A stretch of 64,000 nucleotides of DNA from a bacterium UBP8_UBA817 (GCA_945888435.1 CAMCZW010000006.1:2509-66508), one strand, 5' to 3'. Positions 33,681-52,611 are shown, counted from the stretch's first letter. The notes: a model not told the origin generated them from the sequence alone. A program made the numbers and translations.

Positions 33681-33697
33681 ATGATAAACTTTTGAAA

Positions 33698-35070: not shown

Positions 35071-35331
35071 ATGGCATCAATTTACCTTTATAAAATTTTT
35101 GATTTAGTCTTTCAAGCCATCTATATTGCCATGCTCGTTCGCATCCTTTTATCTTGGTTTCCGCATGATCCTTATCATCCAGTATTATCCATTATCTATC
35201 GCATCACAGACCCTATTCTAATTCCATTTAGAAACATGATTCCCCCCATCGGCGGATTCGACATTTCTCCTATTTTTGCCTTCATGGCGCTCGGGCTTAT
35301 CAAAAAACTGTTTTACTACTTTTTATTCTAA
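35071..35331 (+). CDS. yggT: YggT-family membrane protein
   Basis: 86 aa with LLSWFP..ITDPILIPFRNMIPPIGGFDISPI. Confidence 0.85.
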   Translation: MASIYLYKIFDLVFQAIYIAMLVRILLSWFPHDPYHPVLSIIYRITDPILIPFRNMIPPIGGFDISPIFAFMALGLIKKLFYYFLF

Positions 35332-35604
35332 GTGAAACATTTCATCACATTTAAAATCATTCCAAATTCACCAAAAACCAAGGTGAAGGCTGTGATGTGC
35401 AACCAAAGTGTCAAAATTGCCCTCAAAGCAGAACCCGAAGAAAATAAGGAAAATCAAGCGTTACTCAGATATTTAAGCGATATTTTGTATATTCCAATCA
35501 GCCACATCATCATCCAAACCGGCGAAACCAGTAAACAGAAACTCATATCGATTAAAGGGCTTCCCTATGACACCATCATCAGAAGAATCACTAACGCTAT
35601 TTGA
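35332..35604 (+). CDS. DUF167 (YggU-like) protein
   Basis: 90 aa with a GTG start directly after the yggT stop codon. KIALKAEPEENKENQALLRYLS..GETSKQKLISIKG fits the YggU pattern. Confidence 0.7.
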   Translation: MKHFITFKIIPNSPKTKVKAVMCNQSVKIALKAEPEENKENQALLRYLSDILYIPISHIIIQTGETSKQKLISIKGLPYDTIIRRITNAI

Positions 35605-36838
35605 GTTAAATCAAAACCCACCAGCAAAACCCTCTAACCGCGAAACCCCATCACGCCCATCGGCTCCTTTGGCTCATCTCATGGCGCCAAAAACAATGGA
35701 TCAGTTTATCGGTCAGGATCACCTCTTAGGAGAAGGGAAACCACTGCGTGAATGGATTCGATCCAAAAAAATGCAATCCATCCTCCTATGGGGTCCTCCA
35801 GGATGCGGGAAAACCGCCCTCTCCAAACTCATGACCTCCCAAATGAATGCCAACTACGTAGCACTCAATGCGGTCACCGCTAAAATCGCAGACATCAAAG
35901 CCACCATCGATAACGCAGAGGCCTATGCCAAATTAGGCAGTCGCACCATTGTGTTTATCGACGAAATCCACCGTTTCACCAAAGTCCAGCAAGACGCACT
36001 CCTCCCCGACGTCGAAAGCGGACTCCTCACACTCATCGGGGCTACTACAGAAAACCCCTATTTTTCACTCACCAAAGCCCTATTATCTCGCCTACATCTC
36101 TTTCAACTCACGCCACTCACGTCACCCCAACTTAAAAGTATCATTCAAAATGCACTCACTCACCTTAATCCAAGCGCCCCACCCACACTCAGTCCCCATG
36201 CCCAGTCCGCGTTAATCGCCCAAGCCAATGGCGATGCCCGCAAAACCATTTCATTAATTGAAGCGGCCTACCAAATCAGCCCAGATAAACAGCATTTATC
36301 AGAAGAAACTCTCCAATCCATCCTCCAACAAAAAGGCATTGGTCACGATGAAGAAGATCACTACAACATCATCTCCGCCTTCATCAAAAGCATGAGAGGC
36401 TCTGACGCCAATGCCTCAATCTACTGGCTAGCCCGCCTCATCCACGGTGGAGAGCCACCAGAATTCATCGCAAGACGCATGGTCATCTTCGCATCAGAAG
36501 ACATCGGAAACGCAGACCCATCTGCCCTCACACTCGCCACATCCACCCTCGTCGCCGTCAAAAAAATCGGTATGCCAGAATCCCGGATCATCCTCGCCCA
36601 AGCCGCCACCTACTTAGCTACGGCCCCAAAAAGCAATGCCAGCTACATCGCCATCGACGAAGCAATCTCCGCTATCACTAACGGAACCATCTACGACGTC
36701 CCCAACCACCTCAAAAGCAGCAACTACCATTACAAATACCCCCATGACTATCCCAACGCCCAAGTCCAACAAGACTATCTCCCACACCCCCACCACTTCT
36801 ATCGTCCTAAATTCACTGGAGAGAGTAAATCACTATGA
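35567..36838 (+). CDS. rarA: replication-associated recombination protein A (AAA+)
   Basis: 423 aa with [17 protein letters not shown], Walker [10 protein letters not shown] and VFIDEIHRF. Confidence 0.92.
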
Positions 36839-36848
36839 TTGATCTAGC

Positions 36849-36943
36849 GTTAACACTCATCCCCCTTACCCCTTCTCTGTTCCAAAGAAGGGGAGATAAA
36901 AGCCCCTCTTTGTTCACAGAGAGGGGTTGGGGTGAGTGTTATC
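36849..36943. repeat. MITE-like nested palindromic element, family A, copy 2 (short)
   Basis: GTTAACACTCATCCCC..CCTTCTCTGTTCCAAAGAAGGGG..CCCCTCTTTGTTCACAGAGAGGGG..GGGGTGAGTGTTATC. It lies between rarA and tsaD. Confidence 0.8.
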
Positions 36944-36971
36944 TTCATAAAGACGATTTTAGGAAATTCTC

Positions 36972-38129
36972 ATGAGAATCCTAGCTATCGAAACATCGTG
37001 TGATGAAACGGCTGCGGCTGTAGTCACTGACGGACACACAATCGAGTCCAACATCGTCCATTCTCAAATCAAAGCGCATAAAAAATTCGGCGGTGTCGTC
37101 CCAGAACTCGCCTCCAGAATGCATGCTGAAATCATCAACAAAATCATCACTTTATCGCTTAAAAAGGCCAAGGTGACGTTTAAAGATTTAGACGCCATCG
37201 CCGTCACCCAAGGACCTGGATTAGAAGGCGCACTTCTCATCGGGCAAACCGCCGCCAAAACCCTCGCCAAAGCCCTTAACATCCCCCTCATCCCCGTCCA
37301 TCACATCCACGGCCATATCTACTCAAGCTTCCTTCCGACCCCCCCAGAAAACAACGAAAATGGATGTACCCAGGTTGTTTCAAAAGAGATGAGATTGGAT
37401 ATTTCTCACGAAAGGAGTTTATCGAGGAGCGGAGGCCTCAGCCGTAGCGGTATAAATGACTGTAGTGAAAATATTCAAGATCGCTCTTTTGGAGCAACCC
37501 CTCCATTTCCATTTCTCTCTCTAATCGTTTCGGGAGGCCACACCCAACTCGTTCACGCCAAAGACCATTTCGATTTTGAAATCATCAGCCAAACCAGAGA
37601 TGATGCTGTCGGCGAATGCTTCGACAAAGTGGCCAGAACACTCGGTCTCAGTTATCCAGGAGGCCCCGCCATCCAAGAGGCCGCCATTGGTGGTAATCCT
37701 AAAGCCTTCCCGCTCCCAAAACCCATGAGCAAAAACGGATACGAGTTCAGCTTCTCTGGCCTCAAAACCGCTGTCATCCAAACCATCAAGCCACTCACGC
37801 TAACACCTCAAATCGTCCAGGACATCGCGGCCAGCTTTCAACAAACCGTCGTCGACATCCTAGTCCAAAAAACACTCCTAGCCGCCAAAACCCTAAACAT
37901 CACCACCATCACCCTGGCAGGCGGCGTCAGCGCCAACACCGCCCTCAGAACCGCCTTCCAGCAACTCGCACCCACCCACAATCTCACCGTCATCATCCCA
38001 CCAATGATCTACACCACCGACAACGCCGCCATGATCGCCACAGCCGCCCACTACCAATGCCAGTACTGCCCCAACACCTCTCCAATATTCGCCGCCACTC
38101 CCAACCTCCCACTCTCCCATCCAAAATGA
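36972..38129 (+). CDS. tsaD: tRNA N6-adenosine threonylcarbamoyltransferase with a ~48-aa internal insertion
   Basis: ETSCDET, HHIHGH, SGGHTQL and TTDNAAMIA. The protein is 385 aa, against roughly 340 as I recall for typical TsaD. The extra residues lie between HxxGH and FPF. Confidence 0.92.
   Translation: MRILAIETSCDETAAAVVTDGHTIESNIVHSQIKAHKKFGGVVPELASRMHAEIINKIITLSLKKAKVTFKDLDAIAVTQGPGLEGALLIGQTAAKTLAKALNIPLIPVHHIHGHIYSSFLPTPPENNENGCTQVVSKEMRLDISHERSLSRSGGLSRSGINDCSENIQDRSFGATPPFPFLSLIVSGGHTQLVHAKDHFDFEIISQTRDDAVGECFDKVARTLGLSYPGGPAIQEAAIGGNPKAFPLPKPMSKNGYEFSFSGLKTAVIQTIKPLTLTPQIVQDIAASFQQTVVDILVQKTLLAAKTLNITTITLAGGVSANTALRTAFQQLAPTHNLTVIIPPMIYTTDNAAMIATAAHYQCQYCPNTSPIFAATPNLPLSHPK
37381..37491. 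repeat. family B palindromic element inserted in frame inside tsaD
   Basis: The 111-bp (37-codon) imperfect palindrome CAAAAGAG..CTCTTTTG has the core ATTTCTCACGAAAGGAGTTTAT..ATAAATGACTGTAGTGAAAAT, matching the intergenic copy at 32675-32722. Confidence 0.8.
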
Positions 38130-39466
38130 AGCTCATCCAACGAATCGCACTGAAACAAACCCAAACCCTCAAACAAATCTTGTCTCCCAAGATGATCCAA
38201 AGCCTAAAAACCATGCAACTAAGCATTCCAGATCTCCTCTCCCATATCGAAACAGAATCCAAAGATAATCCGTTCCTAGAAGTCACCCCCTCAAACGCGC
38301 CCTATTATCTCCCATCAAAATCAACGCAACACGCAGGCGACGACAATCCCGACTTTCTAGACTATGCCAGTCAATTTGATCACTGCGGCAATATCATCGA
38401 CTTCGTCAACGCCCAGATCGATCTCGAACACCTCACAGAAAAAGACCAATCCATCGCATTCGACATCACAGAACACCTCGATCAAAGAGGCTACTTACCC
38501 CAATTTGATACCCTCAGAAAACAACTCGCCGAAAAGCATACCGTCCAGGAACGTAAAATCAACGATATCCTCCACATCATCCAAAGCATGGAACCCGACG
38601 GCATCGGCGCAAGATCCCTCAAAGAATGCCTCATTTTACAAGTTGAACACTATCAATTTGATACCGACGATCTCCAAGATCTCCTCACCCAACTCATCAA
38701 AAACCACCTCGATACCCTGGCCGAAAAAAAATACAAAAAAATCGCAGACACCATGGATATCGAAGAAGAAGACGTCATCGCCATGCATACATTCATTAGG
38801 GAAAACCTCACCCCAAATCCAGGCGCAATTTTCTCAAGCAGCCCTGCCAACACCAATGCCCACATCATCCCATCCTTCAAGGTCAGAGTCTCCGAAACGG
38901 ACCAAATTATCCTAGAAAATCTAGAAGAACAAACCGGCCCCAAAATTAATCTCGTTCATCAAGAAGAGGCCTTAAACTCACCAACACTCGACGACGAAAC
39001 ACGCCAATTTTTAAAAGAAAGACTCCAAAAAGCAAAAGACTTAATCGATGCTTACCAAACCCGTCTCCAAAACCTCAATAGTCTCATCAAAACCATCATC
39101 ACACGGCAGGACCCCTTTGTCAGAAAAGGCCTGATCTACCTAGAACCCCTCCTCCAAAAAGAAATTGCAGCAGCGCTCAATCTCTCCCACTCCACAATCT
39201 CAAGAATCGTCTCCTCCAAATTCATCGACACCGCTTATGGCATTTTTCCACTCAAACAACTCTGTCCCCGCAGTATTTCAGGAAAAACCGCCCATCGTCT
39301 CAAGCTCATTATCCAAGAAATTGCAGATCAATTCCCCAACTACTCCGACGACCAAATCCGCCACTATTTAAACAAAATCGGCATCACCATCGCCAGAAGA
39401 ACTGTGACTAAATACCGCCTCGCATCAAATACGCAAGCAAGTTATTATCGAAAATCTCCGATATAA
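38126..39466 (+). CDS. rpoN: RNA polymerase sigma-54 factor
   Basis: The true start is the ATG at 38126, overlapping the tsaD stop codon (ATGA). N-terminal MKLIQRIALKQTQTLKQILSPKMIQSLKTMQLS..NPFLE and RpoN box ARRTVTKYR. Confidence 0.9.
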   Translation: MKLIQRIALKQTQTLKQILSPKMIQSLKTMQLSIPDLLSHIETESKDNPFLEVTPSNAPYYLPSKSTQHAGDDNPDFLDYASQFDHCGNIIDFVNAQIDLEHLTEKDQSIAFDITEHLDQRGYLPQFDTLRKQLAEKHTVQERKINDILHIIQSMEPDGIGARSLKECLILQVEHYQFDTDDLQDLLTQLIKNHLDTLAEKKYKKIADTMDIEEEDVIAMHTFIRENLTPNPGAIFSSSPANTNAHIIPSFKVRVSETDQIILENLEEQTGPKINLVHQEEALNSPTLDDETRQFLKERLQKAKDLIDAYQTRLQNLNSLIKTIITRQDPFVRKGLIYLEPLLQKEIAAALNLSHSTISRIVSSKFIDTAYGIFPLKQLCPRSISGKTAHRLKLIIQEIADQFPNYSDDQIRHYLNKIGITIARRTVTKYRLASNTQASYYRKSPI

Positions 39467-39467: not shown

Positions 39468-39518
39468 CAAAAAGCATTAATACGTTACCTCTTTGAAAAA
39501 AGAAGGAAAAAAACTAGA

Positions 39519-40445
39519 ATGGAACCCATGCAGGCAAAAAAAATAAAAACTCGTCAATTTTTTAATCTGGCAACCATACTTTTGGCAACCTATGTCATCC
39601 TATTATTCATATCAAGCACCCCCTTCGCTCAAGTAAGTAAGCTCAACAAAACCGAATTCGTCTTCGGCAACGGCTCCGGCTGGGAATCCGTCGGCACCAA
39701 CGCAACTCCATCGATGCGCGCAAAACTTCCTGTGATGTTAAGAAGTGGCAGAACTATAGAGAGCATTTTAAATGATTCAAGCGCAAGTTTTTATCAACAA
39801 TTCACAACCCCAACCCTTATGATCAATGCCATCAAAGATAGAATGTTAGGAATGATCGCTTCATTTGCCTACGTTCCAAATGCAAACACCGGCTGGCTAG
39901 TATGCGATGGATCAGAATACAGCACCGCCCAATACCAACAACTAGCAAACTTATTACGTGCCACATACAGCACAGCTGGAACAGGGCACCTCAATTCAGA
40001 TGGGGATTGGGCAGGAAGATTTAAAGTTCCAGATTTGAGAGGGTTATTTATTATGGGAAGTACCTCTACGACCAATGTAACAACAATCAATATTGTCAGT
40101 ACCATACCCCTACATACACATTTCTTCACAGCCGCTGGTAGTAAACAAATCAACACGCCAGCCGCATCAAGTGCAGCACATACTCACACCATCAAATCAC
40201 TATTAGAATCCTCAATGAATACAGATTTCGCTACGGATTCAGGATCAGGACTTCGTCGTGGGTCAAGCAGTGATGCCATACCAGATACCGTCTTCTCCAC
40301 AGTAAATAACCATAGCCATACATTTCCAGCATTAACCATGAGATATGGAGTTTCAACTCAATCATTAACACCAGCAAGACTAATAACTGAAAATCGACCC
40401 CCAAATGCAGCGGTTATTTTTTGTATTTATTCAGGGGTCCCATAA
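39519..40445 (+). CDS. secreted phage-tail-collar-domain protein, paralogue 1
   Basis: Signal/TM segment LATILLATYVILLFISSTPFAQV. Collar motif GMIASFAY..GWLVCDGSEYS..YQQLANLL..GRFKVPDLRGLF. Three HxH sites (LHTHFF, AHTHTI, NHSHTF). Confidence 0.8.
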   Translation: MEPMQAKKIKTRQFFNLATILLATYVILLFISSTPFAQVSKLNKTEFVFGNGSGWESVGTNATPSMRAKLPVMLRSGRTIESILNDSSASFYQQFTTPTLMINAIKDRMLGMIASFAYVPNANTGWLVCDGSEYSTAQYQQLANLLRATYSTAGTGHLNSDGDWAGRFKVPDLRGLFIMGSTSTTNVTTINIVSTIPLHTHFFTAAGSKQINTPAASSAAHTHTIKSLLESSMNTDFATDSGSGLRRGSSSDAIPDTVFSTVNNHSHTFPALTMRYGVSTQSLTPARLITENRPPNAAVIFCIYSGVP

Positions 40446-40447
40446 CA

Positions 40448-41449
40448 ATGAAAATCAAATTATTCGCAGTTATTTTTATCCTGTTAAGCATAAAAAATCC
40501 AATATGGTCAGCACGGTCAGGATTTTCAGCAAATCAAATTATATTTCAAGATGGATCCGGCTGGAAAGAAGCAACAAGTAATGTCTGTGGAACATCGGTT
40601 CAAGTGTTACAAGCGGTAGGAACAACGATACTCTCAAATGGAGTCGTATTAGATACTACCATCGGAACAGTCAGAAATTTTATAGATACATCTGTAATTG
40701 GGATGATTGTACCTTTCGCAAGCACACAAGTTCCACCTGGCTGGCTTCCTTGCGCAGGGCAAATCATTACTGTCACTTCAGTCTCTAATTGCGATTATCA
40801 GCAACTCGCGGACAAAATCCAGACAACTTGGGGCCCCGCAGCCAGTCCAGGGAGCATGGTCGGTGGAAAATTCGTAGGCCGCTTTCAATTACCAGATCTG
40901 AGAGGCCAATTTCTAAGAGGCGCATTAACCATTGATAATGCAGGAACTACCACCGTCGCAAGTCGAGAATCGGTTCTTCTTAATCCTGCAGATTACCCAC
41001 GTTACCGCGACCCAGACTTTGGAAGCCAAATCACATATAGTGGTCTAAATAACGGTACACTTGGAAGTTATCAGCCTTCTGGATTTACAAGCCACTCAAC
41101 TGAACATAACTTCACAATCGATGCAAGTTCAACAAGCGCTGTAGGCGAATCCCACAGCCACGCATCCGGCCAAATTACCCGCGCTGATGGTTATCACTTT
41201 TACTATCCTGAGGCCGTATCGGGAGTAGAGGGGTATGATGATGTGGATAATCATGACACGCTTTTTACTGATGATGACGGCTCTGATGATAATTATCATG
41301 GAACTTCCCCCGCGCTATCCGGTAACACTGGCTCTGGTACCGAAACCCATTCTCATACTTTTGCACCTACTATTTCTCAAGCAGAAAGCATAAGTAACCC
41401 ACATTCATACCCGCAAAATGCAGCATTCACATTTGGAATAAGGTATTAA
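40448..41449 (+). CDS. secreted phage-tail-collar-domain protein, paralogue 2
   Basis: The start is at ATG 40448 (MKIKLFAVIFILLS.. signal peptide). GMIVPFAS..GWLPCAGQ..YQQLADKI..GRFQLPDLRGQFLRG. His sites HSTEHNF, SHSHAS and THSHTF, plus an Asp-rich stretch. Confidence 0.8.
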   Translation: MKIKLFAVIFILLSIKNPIWSARSGFSANQIIFQDGSGWKEATSNVCGTSVQVLQAVGTTILSNGVVLDTTIGTVRNFIDTSVIGMIVPFASTQVPPGWLPCAGQIITVTSVSNCDYQQLADKIQTTWGPAASPGSMVGGKFVGRFQLPDLRGQFLRGALTIDNAGTTTVASRESVLLNPADYPRYRDPDFGSQITYSGLNNGTLGSYQPSGFTSHSTEHNFTIDASSTSAVGESHSHASGQITRADGYHFYYPEAVSGVEGYDDVDNHDTLFTDDDGSDDNYHGTSPALSGNTGSGTETHSHTFAPTISQAESISNPHSYPQNAAFTFGIRY

Positions 41450-41450
41450 G

Positions 41451-42347
41451 ATGAAAAAAATAAAACCCTTCTCATTATTAATCTGCATACTAGTTAGCCT
41501 ACTCCTATTTCCATACCAGCTAGTATCTGAATCCTATTTCAAACAAGATAGACTTCAATTTAAAGGAGGAAATGCATGGATCCCAACAACAAATGGCTCA
41601 ACAGAAGCAATTCTATTCTCAGGAACCGCCCTCACCCTTAGCAATGGAACATTCATCGACTCCGCTGACAAAAACATACTTCACTATGTTGCACCTTTAG
41701 TTGGCTCCATTATGGCATTTTCAATGTCAGGCACCTCAAATATCCCAGACTCCTGGTTAGTATGCGATGGAAGTGAAGTCAGAAAAACAGACTATCCTAT
41801 TTTATACAATACCATTGGAGACCTGTGGGGGACATCATCGGACCCTTCCAGATTTAAACTACCAGATTTAAGAAACTTCTTTCTTAGAGGAGCAGATAAT
41901 TTTGGAACTGGAGGTGGTGCAACTGGCGCCGCAACTAGAGATACCCGACCAAGATATACGACAATCGCATTTTCAGCTGTCAATTCCAGCACAATTAAAA
42001 CTGGATCTTATCAGCCAAATGAAATTTCCACACATACTCATGCGTTATCCATCACAGAAACTAGCAATACAGAAAGCAATGAACACACACATTCAATGAC
42101 TAATTTACATACCAACGACTTTAGAAATGGCGATGGCGCAGATGGCAATAATATTACCCTCTATGGCAATGATTCAAACTCATCAACAATAGTCGGGGCT
42201 ACGGTCTCAGGGGTAGCAGTCGGAACTCATACTCACACATATACATTCCCTAATACGCAAAGTGGCTTCGCGGGGGCAAATTTAACTGTGCACGGCGTCC
42301 CCAAAAGAATCCATCTCATGTACTGCATAAAATATGAACCTATTTAA
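41451..42347 (+). CDS. secreted phage-tail-collar-domain protein, paralogue 3
   Basis: Signal peptide MKKIKPFSLLICILVSLLLF. GSIMAFSM..SWLVCDGSEV..YPILYNTIG..SRFKLPDLRNFFLRG. THTHAL, EHTHSM and THTHTY. Confidence 0.8.
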   Translation: MKKIKPFSLLICILVSLLLFPYQLVSESYFKQDRLQFKGGNAWIPTTNGSTEAILFSGTALTLSNGTFIDSADKNILHYVAPLVGSIMAFSMSGTSNIPDSWLVCDGSEVRKTDYPILYNTIGDLWGTSSDPSRFKLPDLRNFFLRGADNFGTGGGATGAATRDTRPRYTTIAFSAVNSSTIKTGSYQPNEISTHTHALSITETSNTESNEHTHSMTNLHTNDFRNGDGADGNNITLYGNDSNSSTIVGATVSGVAVGTHTHTYTFPNTQSGFAGANLTVHGVPKRIHLMYCIKYEPI

Positions 42348-43668
42348 TAACAGTCGATCTAACGGCTTACCGTTATATTTATTCAGAATTGTCTTCGGAG
42401 TATTTTTACTTTTATCGTCCTTAAGCATCATAAAAAAAATAACACTAAGACATATTATGCATACCGCAGAAATATATATCCCCTACTTTAACTTTATTCC
42501 ATTACCATCATACACAGCATCACTAATACTAGTGTGTACATTATCACTACTATCCATCTTTTTTATGATTGGATACAGATTCAAGCTAGCAAGCGGGCTA
42601 ATATTCCTCATAAGCCTTTATTTCTTTTCTCTCCATATGGAAAGGTTTAATAACCATTATTACCTTGTCTTATTAATCCTTTTGCTCTTTACAGTCTCCG
42701 ATGCAGGGAAAGGACTTTCTTTAACAAAAGAGAAAGCCCCAGAATCGATACCAAGCTGGCAATTAAACCTGCTTCGCTTTCAGTGTGCCATCCCCTATTT
42801 TTTTAGTGGCATTCAAAAATTACTAGATAATGATTGGAGAAGTGGCGCATTAATGCAACATAGACTAAGAAATCTAACTCCTCATAGTTTATTCAGTCAG
42901 ATAGACTCCTATACCATTGGTTCAATAGTAGCAAAATTAGCAATTACATTTGATATTGCCATTGGATTTTTACTTATAAACAAAAAAACCAGGCGATGGG
43001 CTGCGATTCCATTCCTTGGCTTTCACTTAATCAATCATTTTATAATATTTGGTAAAATTGCAGGAAGAGATTCTGTAGGTGTTTTCCCACATATTGCCAT
43101 CGCAAGCCTGATTATCTTTTTTGACGGAGATGAAATTTCAAAAGGACTATCAATCCTAAAAGAGAAGTTTAATCAGTTTCAATTAAAGCTAAGTAACCAG
43201 GTCTTAACTCTTCAAAAATCAATTTTTCGCCCCTATATTGTATCGATAATACTTTCAATCATTATATTATTTCCAATATACAGATATGCAAATTACACGC
43301 AGACATATTGGAAAGATTTAAGAATTGGGACATGGAATAGCCATGCTCTTAAAAAAACTGGATTTCTAGATATTTACTACCAACATAATCAAACAGGGGA
43401 ATGGATTTTATATATCCCTCGTACTAATTTATTTATACCCCATTATAAAGCATTAGAATCGCCAGAAGGTCATTATCAATTAGCTCAAAATCTTAAATCT
43501 CAAATGGAATCAACAGGATTATTTGTCCCCTATGTTGGATTTATTTCCGAAATTGTAATCAATGGAAGTAAAGTGAAAAAATTTCAAGGAATTCTTCCTT
43601 GGGAAGAATTAACAGAGCAATTATTTGAAACTGAGTTCACAAAATCCATTCCAGAAACAAAGCAATAA
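42334..43668 (+). CDS. vitamin K-dependent gamma-carboxylase-like (HTTM) polytopic membrane protein 1
   Basis: 444 aa with [58 protein letters not shown] and [10 protein letters not shown], plus a C-terminal soluble domain. The ATG overlaps the upstream stop codon by 14 nt. Confidence 0.75.
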   Translation: [444 protein letters not shown]

Positions 43669-43670
43669 TC

Positions 43671-45008
43671 ATGAACAATCAAAAAAATACTTCAACTAGT
43701 ATCGAAAATTTAATATTAACACCCGTGATTAACCATTCCTTGATTTTATTTAAAATTATGATTGGGGTATTAATCTCATTTCTTGCAATCAGAAATATTT
43801 ACTTTGATTTTATCCATACCGCTTATATCAACAATACGTTCTACTGGCCAATATGGCCTCAAATGGCGCAACACATCCCAAGATCAATGTTTACCTATCT
43901 CAATCTCGGAACTCTTCTCTTCGGCATTCAAATCGCAAGACAAAAATGGGGAGCCTGGAGCTATTTTGGATATCTAATATGCTATTTACCCCTATTTACA
44001 TTTAATTACACGTATTATGAAGATTACCAATTACTACTCATCACTATTTGCGTATTACTAAGCTTAACAAGTCATCAAAAAGCAATAAAATCTGCACAAA
44101 TACAAAGCTGGGAAATTTTAATATTTAAGTTATTATTTTCCAGTATTTTACTATGGAGAGTAATCGCATATCTTAATATAGCCTGGCTCTCAGGTACCAC
44201 CCTTAAAACAGTTCTAGCTCCTACTGTATTAAAAAATCTGCTATTCAGTCCTTCAAATTGGATAATAATAGCGATAAGTATTAGTCTACCGATATTTGAA
44301 TGTTGCCTAGCACTAATCCCATGGAAATTCCCCAAATTAATCCCCGGATTATGGATCGGTCTTTTACTTTATTTCTATACCAATATTTTTTTCGACAGTG
44401 AATTTCAGTATAGTCAAATGCCTCTATTATTATTTGCGTTAAGCACCCTATTTTTACCAGCGGATTACCCTAAAAACTTCATCAAAAAAATAACTCAGCT
44501 ATTAGATAAGATTATCCAGGCTGGAAAGTCGATAAGCACTCCATCTCAAAATTCCACTCAACAGATATCACCTACAGTAAAAACCTTAATCGCAGTCTAT
44601 GTAATTATCCAGTTAATAATTCCATTGAATGTATACACGATATTACCAAATCATAAATGGGTAATAACCTATCCCACCTTCTCTTGGTCAATGAAAAAAC
44701 AAAGGACCGTTCAATATGGCTATCTCACACTAGTCAACCCAACTACAAAAGAAACATCACAGATAAAACCGCCTGATGGTGTATTAGATACTCCGCTAAC
44801 ACTATTAATATATGCCCATCAATTAAGAGATTCTTACAAAAGCCAATATGGAGTAACACCCGAAATCTACGCTCATTTAAGAAAATCAATTAATAATCGT
44901 CCTATAACACCCTACACAAATCCAGAAATTGATTTATCCAAAGTTAATTATCAATTTGGAAAATCCCCATCATGGATACTCCCTCAACCTGAAAACTACT
45001 TCAAGTAG
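43671..45008 (+). CDS. vitamin K-dependent gamma-carboxylase-like (HTTM) membrane protein 2, divergent
   Basis: 445 aa with the same architecture. C-terminal TFSWSMKKQ and GVTPEIYAHLRKSINNRPITPYTNPEIDL resemble the GGCX lumenal domain. The NNH and GxxK..DW segments are degenerate. Confidence 0.65.
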   Translation: MNNQKNTSTSIENLILTPVINHSLILFKIMIGVLISFLAIRNIYFDFIHTAYINNTFYWPIWPQMAQHIPRSMFTYLNLGTLLFGIQIARQKWGAWSYFGYLICYLPLFTFNYTYYEDYQLLLITICVLLSLTSHQKAIKSAQIQSWEILIFKLLFSSILLWRVIAYLNIAWLSGTTLKTVLAPTVLKNLLFSPSNWIIIAISISLPIFECCLALIPWKFPKLIPGLWIGLLLYFYTNIFFDSEFQYSQMPLLLFALSTLFLPADYPKNFIKKITQLLDKIIQAGKSISTPSQNSTQQISPTVKTLIAVYVIIQLIIPLNVYTILPNHKWVITYPTFSWSMKKQRTVQYGYLTLVNPTTKETSQIKPPDGVLDTPLTLLIYAHQLRDSYKSQYGVTPEIYAHLRKSINNRPITPYTNPEIDLSKVNYQFGKSPSWILPQPENYFK

Positions 45009-45090
45009 TTGCAAAGTAACCAAAAAAAAGTTACGATCGCTACATCACCTACTATTAGGGGCCTATCAAAGGGAATAAAGGGGGACTAAT

Positions 45091-47415
45091 ATGCCAGTAT
45101 ACGGAATAGCAACAGCCGAACCAAAAATTCAACCAACAAAAGTGATGGTGGTTAATCAGGGATCAAATCCTGGTTCTATTGCTTCATCAATAAGCAATTT
45201 AGTAACAACATCAGGGCTAACACTTGCATCCTGGCTAGGATGGGTAAATCCAACTCCAGCACCTATAACCACTCACCCAGTAATACAATCCAAAAGTAAA
45301 ATCGTGACAGAAAACCCGGTACCAGCAAAAGAGAACCCTCATAGATCCAGAAGAGTAACTGAAAGTATCACAATAACAGAGGAATCAAGAGCCCTTGTTA
45401 ACACCCCAGGCCTAGGGAATTTTAATGAAAACAGCTTTGGTAGTCTTGACCACCGTTTTGCGATATCTATCTGGGGGCGAACATTAGATGCTAACGGAAC
45501 ACGAATACCAACAGAGCTATGGCTAAGTTTTTTAACGCTATCCAGTTCAGGCGACTACCGTACTCAAAATCATGAAATTATGATCAGCAGAGCAAGTGAA
45601 AGTCAACAAATTATAAAGAATGGAGGTTTTGGTATACTGTTTCTAAATTCAAAAGCAATAGTGCGCTGGGAAACACTCACAACTGGAGCAGATTCCAACC
45701 TCGCAAGCGCCTATACTCGGCATGCTAAAGTAGTAGATTTAGCCACAGGTGGACTTAGTGAATTAGAAATACCCAATATGATCCCACTTTCATTAAGCTC
45801 AACTACAGGTATTATGCTGGCATTACAGGGCAGCAATGGTCTCAATGCGACCTTAGTGACAGAAAATCCAGATGGGAGCATTACACAAACTCCGACACTC
45901 ATCCCTGGAATTACAACCGATTCAATCCGTTTCGGGGCGGTTAATTTACAAGGTCTAAAAAATAATAGCACTTCATTTTTTTTATCCACACTCACACAAT
46001 GTGCCATGTGCAGTATTCAGCCAGATAACACCATCACTTCAGAGATGCTACCTCTTGATCCCTCCTTATTTAGCAGTATCCCAGGGGCATCAACAACTAC
46101 TTTTGCTCCCGGTGTGATTTCATATTCTGCAAGACAAACACCTCCTGTTTCAATTAGATCACAAGCATTAGGCCAATTCACATTAATTTGCAATCTCAAA
46201 ACAGGGGCGTCTCAATTATATGACGGAATTACGCTTGGACCCGTATTTACACTACCGCCAGGCTCCTTACATAATCAAAATATTATTGAAGTCCCCAAAA
46301 TGGTTAGCCCCCCCCAATCCAATCATTTTTTGATGTATAACACAGTTGATAGAACCAGTATAAATATTGCACATCTATCATTAAATTCAACCCAAAAAAC
46401 AATTGAAGTCGAGTCTACATTTACAATTTCACAAAGCCATCCTGAGACAAGTGAAGCATTAAATCTATCCCCATTAGTCATAAAAGACCCAAATGGAGAC
46501 GCCGAAGTAATATCATTTTCTTGTGCACAAACTAATCCGCAAAGTTGTCAGGTAGATGCTTACAGATTAAATCCTCTCACCCATGATGCATCGCTACTAG
46601 GACATCTCGAACTTCCTGATGTTGAAAGTCGTACAAGCCGGGCGATGATAGCCATGAATAATAATAAAATCCAAATGATCTTCCCAAATGGGGCATCAAG
46701 CAATCCACTGGAAACGCGAGTATTTCTCCTACAGTATGTCGAGCGAGCGACCTCAACAAGTACTCAAAGACCATCAACCGCCACAACAACACCAAGAACC
46801 GCATCTAGTTCTAGTTCTAGTTCTAGTTCTAGTTCTAGTTCTACCCGTCAACCCACTAGCGCCACTCAAAATCAAGGTGTCGACGCAGTAGAGTCATCAT
46901 CAAGCAAAGGTGACGCAATCCTAAACACCACAAGTATTGCCGGTATTATTGTAGCGGGAGTAATTGTTGTAGCGGGAGTAATTATCGCAGTTGTCATATG
47001 TAACAGAGGCGACAAAAAAACACACCCAACAATGCTAGTCGTTACTCAAGCGGCTTTCGACCAGATGTTAGGTGATGGAAGCGTAGTCAATCCAAAAGAT
47101 CTAAAAATATTACGCGCCTCAGCATCCTTAAATGGACTCCCTACATCAAAAATACATCAACAAAGAACTGCAGTAGATGAAGAAGATCCCGATGCAACTT
47201 ATCAAGATATATCAAACGTTGGTCCAGGGGTTAGGATGGCGAGCCACCCTAGTTTTCCACACTACGAGGAACCAGTACCATTTGGCGGCCACGGCTACTT
47301 ACAAGTAAGCGCAGAAGGTCAAGGTCAAGGCCCAGTGTCAAATCCTACATACGACACGGCTTGCGAAAGCTACTACGACCCAGCAACGCTAAAAGGCTTA
47401 GACGTAACCAAATAG
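45091..47415 (+). CDS. large anchored surface protein A (conserved leader, unknown ectodomain, Ser/Thr/Pro stalk, TM helix, Tyr-rich tail)
   Basis: 774 aa with GGGGGA upstream. Leader LTLASWLGWVNPTPAPITTHPV..ENPHRSRR, stalk TSTSTQRPSTATTTPRTAS(13)TR, TM IAGIIVAGVIVVAGVIIAVVIC followed by NRGDKK. Paralogue of 47555-49576. Confidence 0.8.
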   Translation: MPVYGIATAEPKIQPTKVMVVNQGSNPGSIASSISNLVTTSGLTLASWLGWVNPTPAPITTHPVIQSKSKIVTENPVPAKENPHRSRRVTESITITEESRALVNTPGLGNFNENSFGSLDHRFAISIWGRTLDANGTRIPTELWLSFLTLSSSGDYRTQNHEIMISRASESQQIIKNGGFGILFLNSKAIVRWETLTTGADSNLASAYTRHAKVVDLATGGLSELEIPNMIPLSLSSTTGIMLALQGSNGLNATLVTENPDGSITQTPTLIPGITTDSIRFGAVNLQGLKNNSTSFFLSTLTQCAMCSIQPDNTITSEMLPLDPSLFSSIPGASTTTFAPGVISYSARQTPPVSIRSQALGQFTLICNLKTGASQLYDGITLGPVFTLPPGSLHNQNIIEVPKMVSPPQSNHFLMYNTVDRTSINIAHLSLNSTQKTIEVESTFTISQSHPETSEALNLSPLVIKDPNGDAEVISFSCAQTNPQSCQVDAYRLNPLTHDASLLGHLELPDVESRTSRAMIAMNNNKIQMIFPNGASSNPLETRVFLLQYVERATSTSTQRPSTATTTPRTASSSSSSSSSSSSSTRQPTSATQNQGVDAVESSSSKGDAILNTTSIAGIIVAGVIVVAGVIIAVVICNRGDKKTHPTMLVVTQAAFDQMLGDGSVVNPKDLKILRASASLNGLPTSKIHQQRTAVDEEDPDATYQDISNVGPGVRMASHPSFPHYEEPVPFGGHGYLQVSAEGQGQGPVSNPTYDTACESYYDPATLKGLDVTK
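46804..46842 (+). repeat. hexanucleotide microsatellite (TCTAGT) x 6.5 encoding poly-Ser
   Basis: tctagt is repeated six times, followed by tct. It is in frame inside surface protein A. Confidence 0.95.
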
Positions 47416-47554
47416 GCTAAACCCTAGCCGCCTAAATCCGAGGGGACTGTTACCTTAACATTCCCCTCAACAATAAAAATAGTTACGAAATGATTGACGA
47501 TTCACAAAAAAATAATTACTCTTCTGGAAGATATCGTAGCCAAGAAGGGAAAAA

Positions 47555-49576
47555 ATGAAACCAACCGAAATCACCAGCGTAATTCCAAGACCCCAAATTC
47601 AAACATCCTCACCCGCCACCCAATCCCAAAGATCAGACATCGCACCAAGCGGTGGCATAGCAGACACTATAAGCCGTACAGTGCAGACATCAGGGCAAAC
47701 ACTTGCATCCTGGCTAGGATGGGTAAATCCAACACCAGCGCCTATAACCACTCACCCAGTACCAAAATCCAAAAGTAAAGTCGTGACAGAAAACCCTGTA
47801 CCAGCAAAAGAGAACCCTCATAGATCCAATAGATCCAGAAGAGAAGCTTTAAGTTTCCAACAAGACGCTGTACAACTTCTTTCTCCTCAATCATCTGACT
47901 TCGAAGACTTTGAAGCGGCAAAAACTCTTAATAAAGAATATTTAACATTAACTTGGTTTAAAGAATTATCTATAGGATTTAAAATTGGATCTCCAGAATT
48001 TCAAGGAGAAGAGCATTCGCTAGTTATCCTCAAAAGATCACCTTCTGGACTCTACACCCCATTAACCCCTTCAGCAGTGATCATCAATACCCCTGCGCAA
48101 GATCGAGATCCAAGTAAAAACCCACCATTTTTAGCATTTGAAAAGACCGGCCTCATCGGAGTAATCGAACGTGTAATCCTTCAAAACGGCACCATAATCA
48201 ATCAGCAATCGGCCACAAAACTCAATTTGGAAACAGGTCAATTAGATGGCCAACTACACCCTGGTTACCTAAATTCGGTTAAACTAACCTCGTCGACAGG
48301 GGTATTAATTTCTCAAGAAGGGACTGGAGAGTTAAATGCATTAATGATTAAAGAAAATGCGGATGGAACAATAACCGGAACCCCCATTACACTCCCGGGA
48401 TTATCAGCAAACCGCAACACAGCAATCCAGACAGCAAGACTAACAGATAATTCGTTTTTAATTAAACTAGAGTCTACCTTAGCAAGGTTAACACTTAATG
48501 AAGATCATTCAGTAACTGTAGTGACCCTTTCAACAAGTTTATCCCCCAATGGAAATATCATGACATCTCCTATATTCGGAAATAATCTCTTGATTACTGA
48601 ATCAGCAATCTCTTCCATGGGCCGATTTTACAATGGAACCTCACTTGGCCAGCCATTTCCCATACCATTATCATTTAGCTACTCACCTGAAATAATTGAC
48701 ATCTCTCAAACCCCGTCAGGAAATAGAGAATTCCTATTCCAGACTCCTTCATTCCAGGCTCCTTCTGGAATCATAGGAAGCATTTCAATAGGTAAAGCAT
48801 CCTATAACCCACAAACAAATACTCTAGATTTTCAAGGAACAGCAACAATCAATGCGCATGCCTCGCAAGCCGCTATCATAGCCGGAGTAATGACAGATGC
48901 TGATGTCCAAGCAGGTCTTGGCGGCCCTGGAATCATTTCGTTTTCATGCACAGTTGACCAATGCCAAGTAAATGCCCATCGATTAGATGTTGATGCGATG
49001 ACTACCCAACACTTAGTCTCACAAAATGTATCAGATATCAGCGGACTTTTTTCAGGTAAAATGGAAATCACAGGTCCAAACATCCAAGTCTTTACCTTAC
49101 AAGAAAATCCAATGCATATGGCTATCACAAAGCTATTCATGTTAAAAGGGATTCCAGTAGCCAATACAACGACAACACCCAGACCAGCCTCATCTAGCCA
49201 ATCTATGCCACCAACTTCAGCCGCACCATCATCACCTTCCACGTCAATAACAATCCGCCCTACTACAGTAAGCCGACCCCCAGATCCGACGACAACTTTA
49301 AGATCAACCTCTTCCAGCTCTCAAACAAAACAAAATGACACAATCACTGATGCCCCCCAAGTCAGCCGCAGTCTCGACACTGAAACGTTAGTTGGCATTA
49401 TTGCAGGCGCAGTTGCAGGAGGTGTCGCACTAAGCATCCTCGGCTACCTAGTCTACTCAAAAATCAGAGGACTTCGGGTAGTCCAGTCAACCGAATTCAA
49501 GATAGCCGATGCGTTACAAAAGCTACCAGGGGTTAATCCAGATAATTTTGGATTTAACGAAACAGAAATCCTCTAA
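47555..49576 (+). CDS. large anchored surface protein B (paralogue of A)
   Basis: 673 aa with the same leader (QTLASWLGWVNPTPAPITTHPV..ENPHRSNRSRR). Shared blocks TSSTGV..ENADGTITGTP and ISFSC..CQVNAHRL. S/T/P stalk, TM LVGIIAGAVAGGVALSILGYLVY and a short tail. Confidence 0.8.
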   Translation: MKPTEITSVIPRPQIQTSSPATQSQRSDIAPSGGIADTISRTVQTSGQTLASWLGWVNPTPAPITTHPVPKSKSKVVTENPVPAKENPHRSNRSRREALSFQQDAVQLLSPQSSDFEDFEAAKTLNKEYLTLTWFKELSIGFKIGSPEFQGEEHSLVILKRSPSGLYTPLTPSAVIINTPAQDRDPSKNPPFLAFEKTGLIGVIERVILQNGTIINQQSATKLNLETGQLDGQLHPGYLNSVKLTSSTGVLISQEGTGELNALMIKENADGTITGTPITLPGLSANRNTAIQTARLTDNSFLIKLESTLARLTLNEDHSVTVVTLSTSLSPNGNIMTSPIFGNNLLITESAISSMGRFYNGTSLGQPFPIPLSFSYSPEIIDISQTPSGNREFLFQTPSFQAPSGIIGSISIGKASYNPQTNTLDFQGTATINAHASQAAIIAGVMTDADVQAGLGGPGIISFSCTVDQCQVNAHRLDVDAMTTQHLVSQNVSDISGLFSGKMEITGPNIQVFTLQENPMHMAITKLFMLKGIPVANTTTTPRPASSSQSMPPTSAAPSSPSTSITIRPTTVSRPPDPTTTLRSTSSSSQTKQNDTITDAPQVSRSLDTETLVGIIAGAVAGGVALSILGYLVYSKIRGLRVVQSTEFKIADALQKLPGVNPDNFGFNETEIL

Positions 49577-49589: not shown

Positions 49590-50237
49590 TCATCCACCCA
49601 CATCCGAGGGGACTGTTACCTTAACATTCCCCTCTTCGCCCTCAGCCACTACCACGGGATACCCCGTTGCTTCAAACAATCCCGCTTCATCCGTCGTATC
49701 CAACTCTGGAAATTGACGATAAATCTTTAAAAGAATACTCACCGGAAAAACCTGCGGGGTTTGTACCCGGATAATCGACTCTCGATTAAGAGTCCCCACC
49801 ACCATCGCATTTTCAACTTGCTTTAAAGTATCCGAAACAGAAACTCCAGGGATAACCCCATGAGTAGGCGATGCCTTTTTCAACAGTCGTTTAATCAAAT
49901 CCGCACTCACCCAAGGTCGGGCGGCATCATGGATCATCACATAGTCACAATTTAAAAGGGCATTCACCCCATTTTGGACAGAACGGCATCGGGTTGCCCC
50001 ACCTTCAATCAATCTAAAGCGATCCAAAAGGTCATGGACACCCAAGAGATCTTCCATCCGAGAAAAATGATCTACAGAAACCGTCACTACCCGATCCGTA
50101 ATCATTATAAAATCATCAAATGCCCGACAGGATTTGACGATCATCGGCACCCCATCAATCGGTAAAAACTGCTTCGGAGTATCACCCCCAAATCGAGATC
50201 CAGATCCCGCTGCCGTAATCACCAACCCCACATTCAT
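49590..50237 (-). CDS. ispD: 2-C-methyl-D-erythritol 4-phosphate cytidylyltransferase
   Basis: 215 aa with ITAAGSGSRFG and C-terminal GEEGNVKVTVPSDV. Confidence 0.92.
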   Translation of the reverse strand: MNVGLVITAAGSGSRFGGDTPKQFLPIDGVPMIVKSCRAFDDFIMITDRVVTVSVDHFSRMEDLLGVHDLLDRFRLIEGGATRCRSVQNGVNALLNCDYVMIHDAARPWVSADLIKRLLKKASPTHGVIPGVSVSDTLKQVENAMVVGTLNRESIIRVQTPQVFPVSILLKIYRQFPELDTTDEAGLFEATGYPVVVAEGEEGNVKVTVPSDVGG

Positions 50238-50476
50238 GGAGCGACTCCCTCACGGGTCACAAAATAACCAACGTGATCTTCTCCCCAATAATTCCAACGC
50301 ACTTTAATCACAGTGGTTTTAGCATTTAAGTAAATGGTCTTCACCCGACCTGAAATATTATCCAATTCATGCTCCCCTGCCACAACAATAGGAAAATACC
50401 CCGCCACCGGAATCTCCATCCACGGTTTCTCCAAATCGCCTTCATGATATAACCGTACTGCCACCATATTTCTCAT
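50234..50476 (-). CDS. hypothetical small protein
   Basis: 80 aa. Its stop codon overlaps the ispD start (ATGA-type junction). No motif recognised. Confidence 0.45.
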   Translation of the reverse strand: MRNMVAVRLYHEGDLEKPWMEIPVAGYFPIVVAGEHELDNISGRVKTIYLNAKTTVIKVRWNYWGEDHVGYFVTREGVAP

Positions 50477-50485
50477 AAAATCCTC

Positions 50486-50683
50486 CTATTCAATGTCAAT
50501 TAGGCCATCATCTTTATAAAGCTCCCAATCCGCTTGTTCTGCAGAAAGTTGCTCTTTAAGTAAAAAAAATAAATCTTCTAAATCTTTTGAAATTCGAGGA
50601 TGGTTGGATCTCAGCTTAATACGAGCCGTATTAAGAGACACAAGGTGCTGAGAGTTAATTTTAGGACGCAGCGGCCGTTTCAT
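50486..50683 (-). CDS. hypothetical small protein
   Basis: 65 aa, overlapping the trpA 3' end by 23 nt. No motif recognised. Confidence 0.3.
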   Translation of the reverse strand: MKRPLRPKINSQHLVSLNTARIKLRSNHPRISKDLEDLFFLLKEQLSAEQADWELYKDDGLIDIE

Positions 50684-51443
50684 AAAAGCGTTTGATCTCA
50701 GATTTAAAGACTAACACTGCAGCGTCCAAATCGGGCTGAGACGCAATCAATCTTACAAAATAGCTACCGACAATCGCCCCCTCCGCATATTCCCAAACAT
50801 CGCCAACTTGAGAGGGCTGGCTAATTCCAAATCCCACCGCAACCGGAATTGGCTTAATGTCCTTAATCGTTTTAATAAAGTCAGAAAGCTGATCATTGAT
50901 GATACTTCTCTCACCCGTTATCCCAGTAGTAGACATGACATATACAAAGCCTTTGGACTCGGAAATAATTAAATTTAACCGATCAGGCCGACATAATGTC
51001 GATACTAACGAAATAATCGGGACCCCAGCTTCTCCCGAAGGTTCAATAAAGGGTCCGTATTCTTCAAAACTTAAATCCGGCAAAATGACGCCATCCACAG
51101 CAACTCGTTGGCATTGCTCAAAAAAAGCCTCAATTCCGTATCGAAAGATCAAATTCACAGATCCCATCAAAATAATCGGCTGTTTAAAATCTCTTTTTAA
51201 TCGGTTTACCAACTCAAATACCTGATCCAAGGTGGGGTTATGGACTAACGCTCGTTGATGGGAGGCTTGAATCACAGGGCCATCCGCAATTGGATCAGAA
51301 AATGGGAGCCCGATCTCAAGGACATCAGCCCCAGCTTCAAGTGCAGCGCGCATTAACGCCTCGCTTCCCGCAGGAGTCGGGTCCGCAAAGGTTAAGTATG
51401 GGATTAAACATCGGCCTTCTCTCATGACATTAGACAGCATCAC
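50661..51443 (-). CDS. trpA: tryptophan synthase alpha chain
   Basis: 260 aa with [17 protein letters not shown]. Confidence 0.93.
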
Positions 51444-52605
51444 GGTACTCCATCAAGGTCCCCATATCTTTATCTCCACGACCAGACACGCCCAGGACCA
51501 CTAGTTGGCCAGGTTTAATATTATGAGTATGTTTCAACGCCGCAAAGGCATGGGAGGTCTCTAGCGCAGGAATAATCCCCTCTCGCTCAGCAACCCAACG
51601 GCAAGCATGCAATGCTTCAGTATCCGTCACGGCATCCACCGACAAGCGGCCAACAGATTTTAAATAACTCAATTCAGGCCCAACGCCTGGATAATCCAAT
51701 CCCGCTGACACCGAATGGGCCAGTTGAATTTGCCCCACTTCATCCTGAAGTAAATACGACATCGAGCCATGAAGGACACCAGGTACTCCCCTCAAAAGTG
51801 AGGCCGAATGCTCTCCGCTATCCAGTCCATGCCCAGCAGCTTCAACCGCCAGCAATTGAACAGAGCCGTCATTAATAAACGGGTGAAACAAGCCCATGGC
51901 ATTAGATCCGCCCCCCACACAAGCCACCAACAAATCAGGAAGTCGGCCTTCTTTTTTAAGAATCTGCTCCCTAACTTCCACACCAATAATCGATTGAAAA
52001 TCCCTGACCATCATTGGATACGGATGAGGCCCTACAACAGACCCAATAATATAGTGGGTATTCTCCACACTTTCTAGCCAATCTCGAATCGCTTCCGTCG
52101 TCGCATCCTTAAGCGTCTTGGACCCAGAATTTACAGGTACAACCGTTGCACCCATCAGCTCCATTCGATAGACATTCAAAGACTGCCGACGGATATCTTC
52201 AGACCCCATATAAATGACGCATTCAAGACCCATTAACGCGCACACTGTCGCCGTAGCAACACCATGCTGTCCCGCGCCAGTTTCAGCGATAATTCGGGTT
52301 TTACCCATGCGTTTGGCCAATAAAATCTGGCCCAAAGTATTATTAATTTTATGAGCACCCGTATGGTTTAAATCTTCTCGTTTTAAATAAAGAGAAATTC
52401 CCAATTCATCGGACAAACGTTTAGCAAAAAAAAGGGGGGAAGGACGACCAACATAGTCAGTCCAGTATCCGCGAAGTTCGGCTACGAACTCGGGATCATT
52501 ACGATAGGTAGCATAGCATTCTGCCAAATCATCTAAGGCTGGAATTAAGGTATCCGGAACATACCGGCCGCCAAAAATCCCAAAATGCCCTAAATGATCT
52601 GGCAT
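51430..52605 (-). CDS. trpB: tryptophan synthase beta chain
   Basis: 391 aa with [11 protein letters not shown] (PLP lysine) and GGGSNAMG. Confidence 0.95.
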
Positions 52606-52611
52606 CGTAAA

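Follow-up and report, generated by a model that had tools for sequence, protein, structure and literature searches.

What do the bacterial relatives of the vitamin-K-dependent gamma-carboxylase act on? These VKGC/HTTM homologues are widespread and have no known protein substrate. The question is raised by a block of seven plus-strand genes at positions 39519-49576 of a 64-kb stretch of bacterial DNA (UBP8_UBA817; GCA_945888435.1, CAMCZW010000006.1:2509-66508); the whole stretch is called the window, and all positions are numbered along it. In the block, two genes of the HTTM family (HTTM1 and HTTM2) lie between three genes for secreted Collar-domain proteins (Collar-1 to Collar-3) and two genes for large membrane-anchored proteins (anchored proteins 1 and 2). 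The block was read, tentatively and with a probability of about 0.4, as a clade-specific envelope module in which a split VKGC-like enzyme would act on or with the exported proteins encoded beside it. The island is a compact candidate for protein modification by a VKGC-like enzyme, with five candidate substrates adjoining. An enzyme-substrate link appears plausible from the sequence, and the island makes the protein-substrate question for bacterial VKGC homologues directly testable.

The HTTM pair

HTTM1 (42334-43668, plus strand; 444 amino acids, aa) is a polytopic VKGC-like membrane protein that was matched by the Pfam family HTTM (PF05090; E = 7e-38, 131 bits against a cut-off of 27.7) and aligned to the solved structures of human GGCX (E = 3.5e-10). 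Its active site is intact: GGCX residues N159/H160, K218, W223, H287, N290 and F299 were all kept, as N107 H108, K162, W168, H231, N234 and F251. In GGCX these residues form the binding sites of vitamin K, CO2 and Glu: N159/H160 keep CO2 and the substrate Glu in place, and K218 is the base for vitamin K hydroquinone (PMC12647623, PMC13187478). The C-terminal lumenal domain of HTTM1 was divergent, unrecognised by Pfam and about 18 aligned residues short.

HTTM2 (43671-45008, plus strand; 445 aa) is a degenerate paralogue that fell below the PF05090 cut-off, its kinship being visible in alignments only. Residues 302-441 were matched by VKGC_lumenal_dom (PF22777; E = 5.4e-17, 62.6 bits against a cut-off of 27.7), the lumenal domain that forms the propeptide-binding cleft of GGCX (PMC12647623). 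In the window, NNH was replaced by EDY and the catalytic Lys by Tyr, KKTR and GVFP were gone, and the FH..N motif had lost its His and kept its Asn; all other listed GGCX residues were lost. The motifs were lost in every orthologue (NNHYY to Y[EQ]D[YH]Q, G-x-x-K to I-A-Y). HTTM1 and HTTM2 no longer detected one another with phmmer, and HTTM2 gave no match to the PDB by sequence. When 1.84 billion representative proteins were searched with HTTM2 (phmmer), four clusters scored above 180 bits, all of the dead type, and the next scores (96 bits or less) were those of ordinary active-type VKGC proteins; dead-type HTTM2 is almost confined to the clade that carries the block. Arrays of active/dead/active(/dead) HTTM genes were found in two relatives (L092 and L006), so the pair duplicates as a unit.

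We infer from these features that HTTM1 and HTTM2 form an obligate two-subunit enzyme in which HTTM1 would be catalytic and HTTM2 would dock the substrate. The original prediction of a periplasm-facing machine built from an HTTM pair stood as to the presence of two HTTM-family genes, but the pair consists of one catalytically intact enzyme and one degenerate paralogue that has kept the clamp. Homology with GGCX places the active site and lumenal domain on the periplasmic side.

The likeness to the GGCX system lies in the HTTM fold signature and all checked active-site residues of HTTM1, the VKGC lumenal clamp of HTTM2, the exoplasmic active site, the exported proteins encoded by neighbouring genes, and the leader and dibasic site of the anchored proteins. 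The systems differ in that catalysis and the canonical clamp are carried here by two polypeptides, in the lack of a Gla domain or recognisable GGCX propeptide, and in the candidate substrates, which are fibre-tip trimers. That the equivalent of the lumenal domain can be encoded by a gene of its own has a precedent in Firmicutes, where HTTM and DUF5819 proteins are predicted to form two-protein complexes (bioRxiv 10.64898/2026.08.19.745780); the partner there is a single-pass DUF5819 protein, whereas here it is a full-length dead HTTM paralogue. The active and the dead subunit form a natural pair in which catalysis would be separate from substrate docking, and natural allelic series of the island permit co-variation analysis.

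The Collar trio

Collar-1 (39519-40445, plus strand; 308 aa), Collar-2 (40448-41449, plus strand; 333 aa) and Collar-3 (41451-42347, plus strand; 298 aa) were matched by Pfam Collar (PF07484; E = 3.6e-11, 3e-10 and 4.9e-14; 40-52 bits against a cut-off of 24). They share one plan, in which a signal-like N-terminus is followed by a conserved post-signal motif, the Collar domain and, towards the C-terminus, three HxH motifs. The motif conserved near the N-terminus is F-x-x-G-[SN]-[GA]-W. In Collar-1 the hydrophobic segment spans residues 14-32 and the Collar domain residues 112-178; Collar-2 has a longer post-Collar insert and an acidic loop before its last HxH. Signal-like hydrophobic N-terminal segments were present in all three, in agreement with their earlier description as secreted paralogues, and the Collar, HTTM and VKGC domains assigned from the sequence alone were likewise recovered by Pfam.

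The three HxH motifs were in register across all three Collar orthologue groups. Collar-3 matched structures of T4 gp12 (1ocy, 1pdi and 5iv5), and the alignment passed through the HKH motif of gp12, which aligned with the first of the three HxH sites. The HKH motif is the axial zinc site of gp12. Orthologues of Collar-2 were recovered in L004, L006, L092 and L097 and about nine orthologues of Collar-3, the other matches of which were at Collar level only. All three groups were present wherever a contig covered them, and their number was constant even where the HTTM pair was doubled. A 1:1:1 heterotrimer that binds metal at three sites along its axis would fit the fixed number and the register of the motifs.

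Like the receptor-binding tip of gp12, the short tail fibre of T4, and the COG4675 tail-collar proteins of cells, named 'microcystin-dependent protein' (also the Joint Genome Institute name for the Collar orthologues), these proteins have a Collar domain followed by a metal-binding HxH motif on the trimer axis. They differ from them in standing alone with signal peptides, in having three HxH sites instead of one, and in forming three conserved paralogues in fixed order that are coupled to HTTM genes and have no phage context.

Coupling, conservation and distribution

The coordinates and junctions of the seven genes were exactly as originally described when compared with the open reading frame (ORF) listing, in which no extra ORF occurred between them. 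The start of Collar-2 at 40448 is an ATG within a longer TTG-initiated ORF. In gene order, the junctions are 2 nucleotides (nt), 1 nt, a 14-nt overlap, 2 nt, and gaps of 82 and 139 nt; the seventh gene is convergent with ispD. The overlap, in which the last 14 nt of Collar-3 cover the start of HTTM1, and the order of the genes were kept in every relative recovered, while HTTM1 identity fell from 90% to 37%. Both anchored-protein genes have promoter-like elements of their own, so the tightly coupled unit consists of genes 1-5. The proposal of a coherent same-strand unit of seven genes was thus upheld by conserved order, distinct composition and joint variation between strains, but tight coupling extends to the first five genes only.

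The histidyl-tRNA synthetase (HisRS) of the window had its best named relatives in Candidatus Margulisiibacteriota (about 70% identity), and the sequences came from lake metagenomes, pointing to freshwater Margulisbacteria. To our knowledge, this phylum has no cultured free-living representatives; the island points to what a Margulisbacteria cell surface may present to phages or partners. At least seven lineages, all of them related, have the block between rpoN and ispD, and it was found in these only; HTTM1 identity in relatives carrying it was 90, 55, 52, 50, 38 and 37%. Common flanks were rarA-tsaD-rpoN on one side and ispD-trpA-trpB-rpsA on the other. A relative with 75% HisRS identity had kept ispD-trpAB-rpsA and had an ABC transporter at the site of the block, which is therefore specific to one clade. 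A profile search of metagenome contigs with HTTM yielded two distant matches only.

The component families are already known. Literature searches found no paper connecting tail-collar proteins with gamma-carboxylases and nothing relevant on COG4675/MdpB, in line with the earlier statement that no described system combines Collar with VKGC/HTTM proteins. Three features were not described in the literature found: the pairing of an active with a dead HTTM protein, its fixed coupling to a secreted gp12-like trio, and the population-level hypervariability of the whole module.

Variability between strains and species

Variation at strain level was assessed with L097, a contig from the same lake campaign that covers five block genes and four upstream genes. 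The upstream genes (bamE-like, P5CR, rarA and tsaD) had a synonymous divergence (dS) of 0 from the window. Block genes 1-5 encoded proteins of 84, 77, 84, 90 and 81% identity, with dS of 0.30-0.72 and a ratio of non-synonymous to synonymous divergence (dN/dS) of 0.17-0.33. The left edge of divergence was sharp and fell near 39150, within the 3' end of rpoN. Within the block, stretches of 100% identity (41824-41973, 43015-43464 and 44959-45258) lay between stretches of 47-85%; most variable were the Collar loops between HxH sites and the HTTM2 lumenal domain, the latter at 71-83% nucleotide identity. Contigs end within the block, so a comparison of this kind defines the left boundary only. Another contig of the window's own strain (99.9% identical) ended within gene 7, and assemblies broke inside the locus repeatedly.

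Between species, the flanks of L005 were close to those of the window (TrpB 84%, RpsA 87%; HisRS 89% in a related contig), and the block was at 50% for HTTM1, 45% for HTTM2 and 26-30% for the anchored proteins. The block diverges far faster between species than its flanks, and its genes are real and under purifying selection. The locus behaves like a recombining hypervariable surface-antigen island, HTTM genes included. It shares with flexible surface islands (O-antigen, glycosylation) the identical flanks, divergent mosaic alleles, atypical composition and assembly breaks, and differs in that it holds protein fibres and a VKGC-like enzyme pair where those have glycosyltransferases. Fibres that descend from the receptor-binding tips of phages would be a new type of content for such an island.

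The anchored proteins and their leader

Anchored protein 1 (gene 6; 45091-47415, plus strand; 774 aa) consists of a leader, an all-beta body, a Ser/Thr/Pro stalk, a transmembrane helix (residues 619-637) and a 137-aa tail. Anchored protein 2 (gene 7; 47555-49576, plus strand; 673 aa) has a leader, a paralogous all-beta body, a Ser/Thr/Pro stalk, a transmembrane helix (residues 612-630) and a short tail. They had been called giant; at these lengths they are large. No Pfam family was found in either, and no PDB relative of anchored protein 2.

The leader of anchored protein 1 is about 95 aa long and ends in HRSRR; that of anchored protein 2 ends in RSNRSRR. The earlier observation of a shared N-terminal leader held: it is a direct repeat of 165 nt, copy 1 of which (45190-45354, plus strand) is 89% identical in nucleotides to 47669-47833 and encodes ...TLASWLGWVNPTPAPITTHPV.KSKSK.VTENPVPAKENPHRS. 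The two proteins are 33% identical overall, and because identity is so much higher in the leader, the leader appears to have been homogenised by gene conversion. It is only loosely conserved in the more distant relatives L004 and L005.

Each protein has a single C-terminal transmembrane helix and no N-terminal hydrophobic segment, and the charge distribution indicates that the tail is cytoplasmic. A Cys-x(3-7)-Cys pair was conserved in all five anchored-protein homologues (alignment including L004 and L005), which suggests that the large all-beta domain is extracytoplasmic, in an oxidising compartment. As candidate exported substrates they are thus anchored as predicted, but they have no Sec signal and are preceded by separate promoter-like sites.

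The first of these sites, sigma-70-like, lies directly 3' of the HTTM2 stop codon and before gene 6 (TTGCAA-N17-TACGAT; 45012-45040, plus strand); TTGCAA-N17-TA.GAT was kept in the window, L092 and L004, though the surrounding DNA was 65-79% identical. The second (TTGACG-N17-TACTCT; 47483-47511, plus strand) precedes gene 7 in the same layout. Because of the conserved element after the HTTM2 stop and the similar one before gene 7, both genes probably have their own promoters.

Three further observations were made on these genes. A perfect (TCTAGT)6.7 microsatellite at 46804-46843 encodes the poly-Ser stalk of anchored protein 1; in strain L001, otherwise near-identical, it is three units longer, which gives a protein of 780 aa instead of 774. 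The tail of anchored protein 1 (47020-47415) contains Tyr-centred motifs (Y-x-[DE]-I-S, MASHPS, Y-E-x-P-V, G-Y-L and S-N-P-T-Y) that resemble eukaryotic NPxY/YxxPhi sorting or phosphorylation motifs; they are conserved in the homologue at L005:3405-5615, which is about 26% identical overall. In L092, a single large gene follows the HTTM genes (L092:7742-9527; compared with window positions 44888-45349 and 47687-49140). Its 5' end matches the leader of gene 6 and the region before it at 85% identity and its body matches gene 7 at 99%, the remainder of L092 being at most 78% identical to the window. Either the assembly has joined two genes at the leader repeat that they share, or cassettes have really been exchanged, with the leader as recombination handle.

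Proposed mechanism and alternative explanations

In the proposed mechanism we infer the heterotrimer, the HTTM1/HTTM2 complex, the chemistry, the identity of the substrates and the surface location. Three Sec-exported gp12-tip-like proteins would assemble in the periplasm as a trimer, probably in a 1:1:1 ratio, and would be stapled by three axial metal sites formed by in-register HxH motifs. HTTM1 in the inner membrane would give a quinol/O2-dependent active site at the periplasmic face, and the catalytically dead HTTM2 would give the canonical lumenal clamp at which the substrate docks. The complex would then modify exported island proteins, most likely by carboxylation of acidic residues, as do GGCX and MloH. 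Since the reading frames of Collar-3 and HTTM1 overlap in every case, the Collar trio would be the first candidate for substrate and the leader-bearing anchored proteins the second. The two anchored mucin-stalk proteins, expressed from their own promoters, could be further surface components or carriers. Recombination would keep the island diverse in populations, as would suit a surface structure that phages or grazers encounter or that serves in partner recognition.

A bolder form of this proposal, which we regard as speculative and rather doubtful, is a bacterial protein carboxylation of the vitamin-K(menaquinol) type. The split HTTM1/pseudo-enzyme HTTM2 would put Gla-like metal-binding residues on heterotrimeric fibre tips, on leader-bearing surface proteins or on both, and pressure from phages or predators would make enzyme and substrates diversify together within populations. 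If true, it would be the first such bacterial system. Carboxylation of acidic residues by bacterial family members is exemplified by MloH of the malonomycin pathway, a fused carboxylase that acts on a small-molecule intermediate (bioRxiv 10.64898/2026.08.19.745780); the block differs in having no nonribosomal peptide synthetase, polyketide synthase or ribosomally synthesised and post-translationally modified peptide genes, and its neighbours are large secreted proteins.

Several findings weigh against the reading of the block as an enzyme with its clients. The linkage does not extend beyond the clade. From other phyla, mostly Bacteroidota, 80 HTTM loci among the matches listed, none from the block's clade, were taken with up to 10 kb on either side (search profile, an 8-sequence HTTM alignment) and searched with three Collar queries (phmmer). 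A Collar ORF lay within 10 kb in 1/80, so the general co-occurrence of PF07484 with PF05090 that had been put forward for checking was not borne out. That one locus (L020, Hydrogenedentota) has its Collar gene about 5 kb from HTTM on the opposite strand, in a divergent operon; it was rejected as an independent case, since 1/80 is about chance level by estimate. Elsewhere HTTM genes sat in unrelated contexts (type IX secretion system surface proteins, a nine-gene HTTM array, ribF, serS, a large secreted metalloprotease). Unrelated flanking genes keep their order within the clade too, so that synteny alone is weak evidence, and since the Collar-HTTM association is confined to one Margulisbacteria clade, the conserved order is partly vertical inheritance. 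No Gla domain or GGCX-type propeptide was found by Pfam in the five candidate substrates. Carboxylase chemistry would require both O2 and a reduced naphthoquinone in this organism. The model also needs a route across an outer membrane for the fibres and an export route for the signal-less anchored proteins. AlphaFold2 models were uninformative: the Collar-3 monomer (13 sequences) had a predicted local distance difference test (pLDDT) score of 47.7 and was confident over the Collar core alone, and anchored protein 2 (2 sequences) was all-beta but of low confidence (pLDDT 35.4).

These points bear directly on the explanation that variable envelope genes share a site here without any direct enzyme-substrate link. 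The HTTM pair would then act on a lipid, quinone or small molecule or serve as a membrane platform, and the Collar and anchored proteins would be independent surface proteins brought together by a shared flexible island. MloH, the sole bacterial HTTM-family enzyme described as characterised in the literature found, acts on a small-molecule intermediate, bacterial HTTM genes occur in many unrelated neighbourhoods, Collar linkage outside the clade is at chance level in the sample above, and flexible islands commonly gather unrelated surface genes. It is nevertheless judged unlikely: the Collar-3 and HTTM1 frames overlap in all lineages, the survival of a protein-binding clamp in a paralogue that is dead in other respects speaks for a ligand of macromolecular size, and the HTTM genes share the mosaic variation, including that of the HTTM2 lumenal domain, which would be unusual for an enzyme with an invariant small molecule as substrate. 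The clamp could instead receive the anchored proteins, their leader docking in HTTM2, an acidic stretch being modified and the leader being cut at RSRR. The homogenised leader favours this, as does a dibasic cluster at the same position in relatives (RSRR, RDRK, RGRRS and ARRS) that is followed by 3-7 acidic residues in the next 27-36 aa, and the leader with its upstream region is the best-conserved stretch when L092 is aligned with the window (85%). The layout of leader, dibasic site and mature protein recalls GGCX substrates, in which the propeptide is bound (PMC12647623), although the resemblance is only an analogy. We consider this version quite unlikely. Genes 6 and 7 are not coupled translationally to the HTTM genes and are preceded by promoter-like elements of their own, the leader is loose in L004 and L005, the motif is absent from L005_b1, and there is no Sec signal to take the N-terminus to the periplasm. 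In L006, further HTTM genes stand where the anchored genes are expected, but its contig ends too early.

A role in interference competition can be modelled on the Sdp system of Bacillus subtilis, in which SdpB, an HTTM-family protein, helps to mature the neighbouring exported SdpC toxin and is needed for its maturation. An SdpB-like HTTM protein would then mature the Collar proteins, which would be secreted to bind receptors or to kill, and the anchored proteins would act in immunity or sensing. The block resembles SdpA/SdpB/SdpC and the linaridin HTTM proteins such as CrdG, whose gene lies beside the exported polypeptide that it helps to mature (PMC9927463), in that an HTTM-family membrane protein is encoded beside exported polypeptides, and hypervariability between identical flanks is typical of toxin and immunity loci too. 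It has, however, no short precursor, SdpA, hydrolase, leader protease or immunity gene, and the candidates are 300-770 aa long. Scans of the block with Pfam and NCBIfam were negative for toxin domains, for SdpA, SdpI and SdpR-like proteins and for small precursors (NCBIfam gave sub-threshold noise alone), none of the seven proteins (0/7) matched any family of the anti-phage defence models in PADLOC, and the Collar proteins are 300-aa fibre-tip folds rather than peptides; an Sdp-type locus is very unlikely. Descent of the block from a prophage or tailocin was suggested by the matches of the Collar proteins to phage tail-fibre families and T4 gp12. PHROGs matches were confined to the three Collar genes and to tail-fibre families, the scanned window genes being housekeeping genes, and membership in a phage, prophage or tailocin module was rejected on these grounds. 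With secretion signals on the Collar proteins, a stable site between rpoN and ispD and purifying selection, a phage remnant is extremely improbable.

Composition and regulation of the block

The AT-richness noted by eye was borne out by measurement. GC content was 0.32-0.34 across 42.5-45 kb, which holds the two HTTM genes, against 0.41-0.51 in the flanks. GC content at third codon positions (GC3) was 0.27-0.36 in all seven block genes against 0.51-0.58 in the upstream rarA/tsaD/rpoN, and 0.35-0.48 in most other genes of the window. A third-position strand asymmetry ran through the whole window: GC3 skew was -0.3 to -0.75 in plus-strand genes (e.g., 23300-39466) and +0.1 to +0.8, on the coding strand, in minus-strand genes (e.g., 49590-53961), so the plus strand is C-rich throughout regardless of gene orientation. 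The skew was weaker in the block genes than in their plus-strand neighbours.

No convincing intrinsic terminator was found on the plus strand in the intergenic gaps of the block, and an Rfam scan of the window returned one tRNA and nothing else. Regulation by the adjacent rpoN, as its position might imply, was rejected: no intergenic sigma-54 promoter match preceded any block gene, and window-wide counts were at chance level. The adjacency looks incidental. The sole zero-mismatch -24/-12 consensus in the window (55837-55852, minus strand; TGGCACCGCTTTTGCT) lay inside a plus-strand ORF. In the best sigma-70-like match of the region (39493-39520; TTGAAA-N16-TAGAAT, 10/12), the -10 hexamer runs into the ATG annotated as the start of Collar-1, and another ATG in the same frame follows 9 nt downstream; a leaderless or short-leader Collar-1 transcript could arise from it.

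Other HTTM neighbourhoods and tsaD

The Hydrogenedentota locus (L020:2203-11386, a metagenome-assembled genome, MAG), the only Collar-HTTM proximity outside the Margulisbacteria clade among the matches listed, has a canonical gene for HTTM with a lumenal domain, divergent from an operon that encodes two unknown proteins (420 and 1127 aa), a Collar+Gp10_C protein (317 aa) and a BACON-domain protein. Among the same 80 loci, an HTTM gene was directly beside ribF in 36, and in 27 it lay within about 1 kb of a gene for a secreted, zinc-metalloprotease-like protein of about 1200 aa (HEVGHQFGANH motif), which is possibly another HTTM client. Flavobacteriia HTTM loci were represented by L014-L089 (e.g., L068:5302-8970 and L063:9019-9957). 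In a Nitrospinales MAG (GCA_053574525.1; L008:1-12193), nine tandem full-length genes for HTTM with VKGC_lumenal were followed by a gene for a SurA-like chaperone. Upstream of the block, tsaD (36972-38129) overlaps rpoN by 4 nt; its product is, by eye, a conserved protein interrupted near its middle by about 55 inserted aa (ENNENGCTQVVSKEMRLDISHERSLSRSGGLSRSGINDCSENIQDRSF...).

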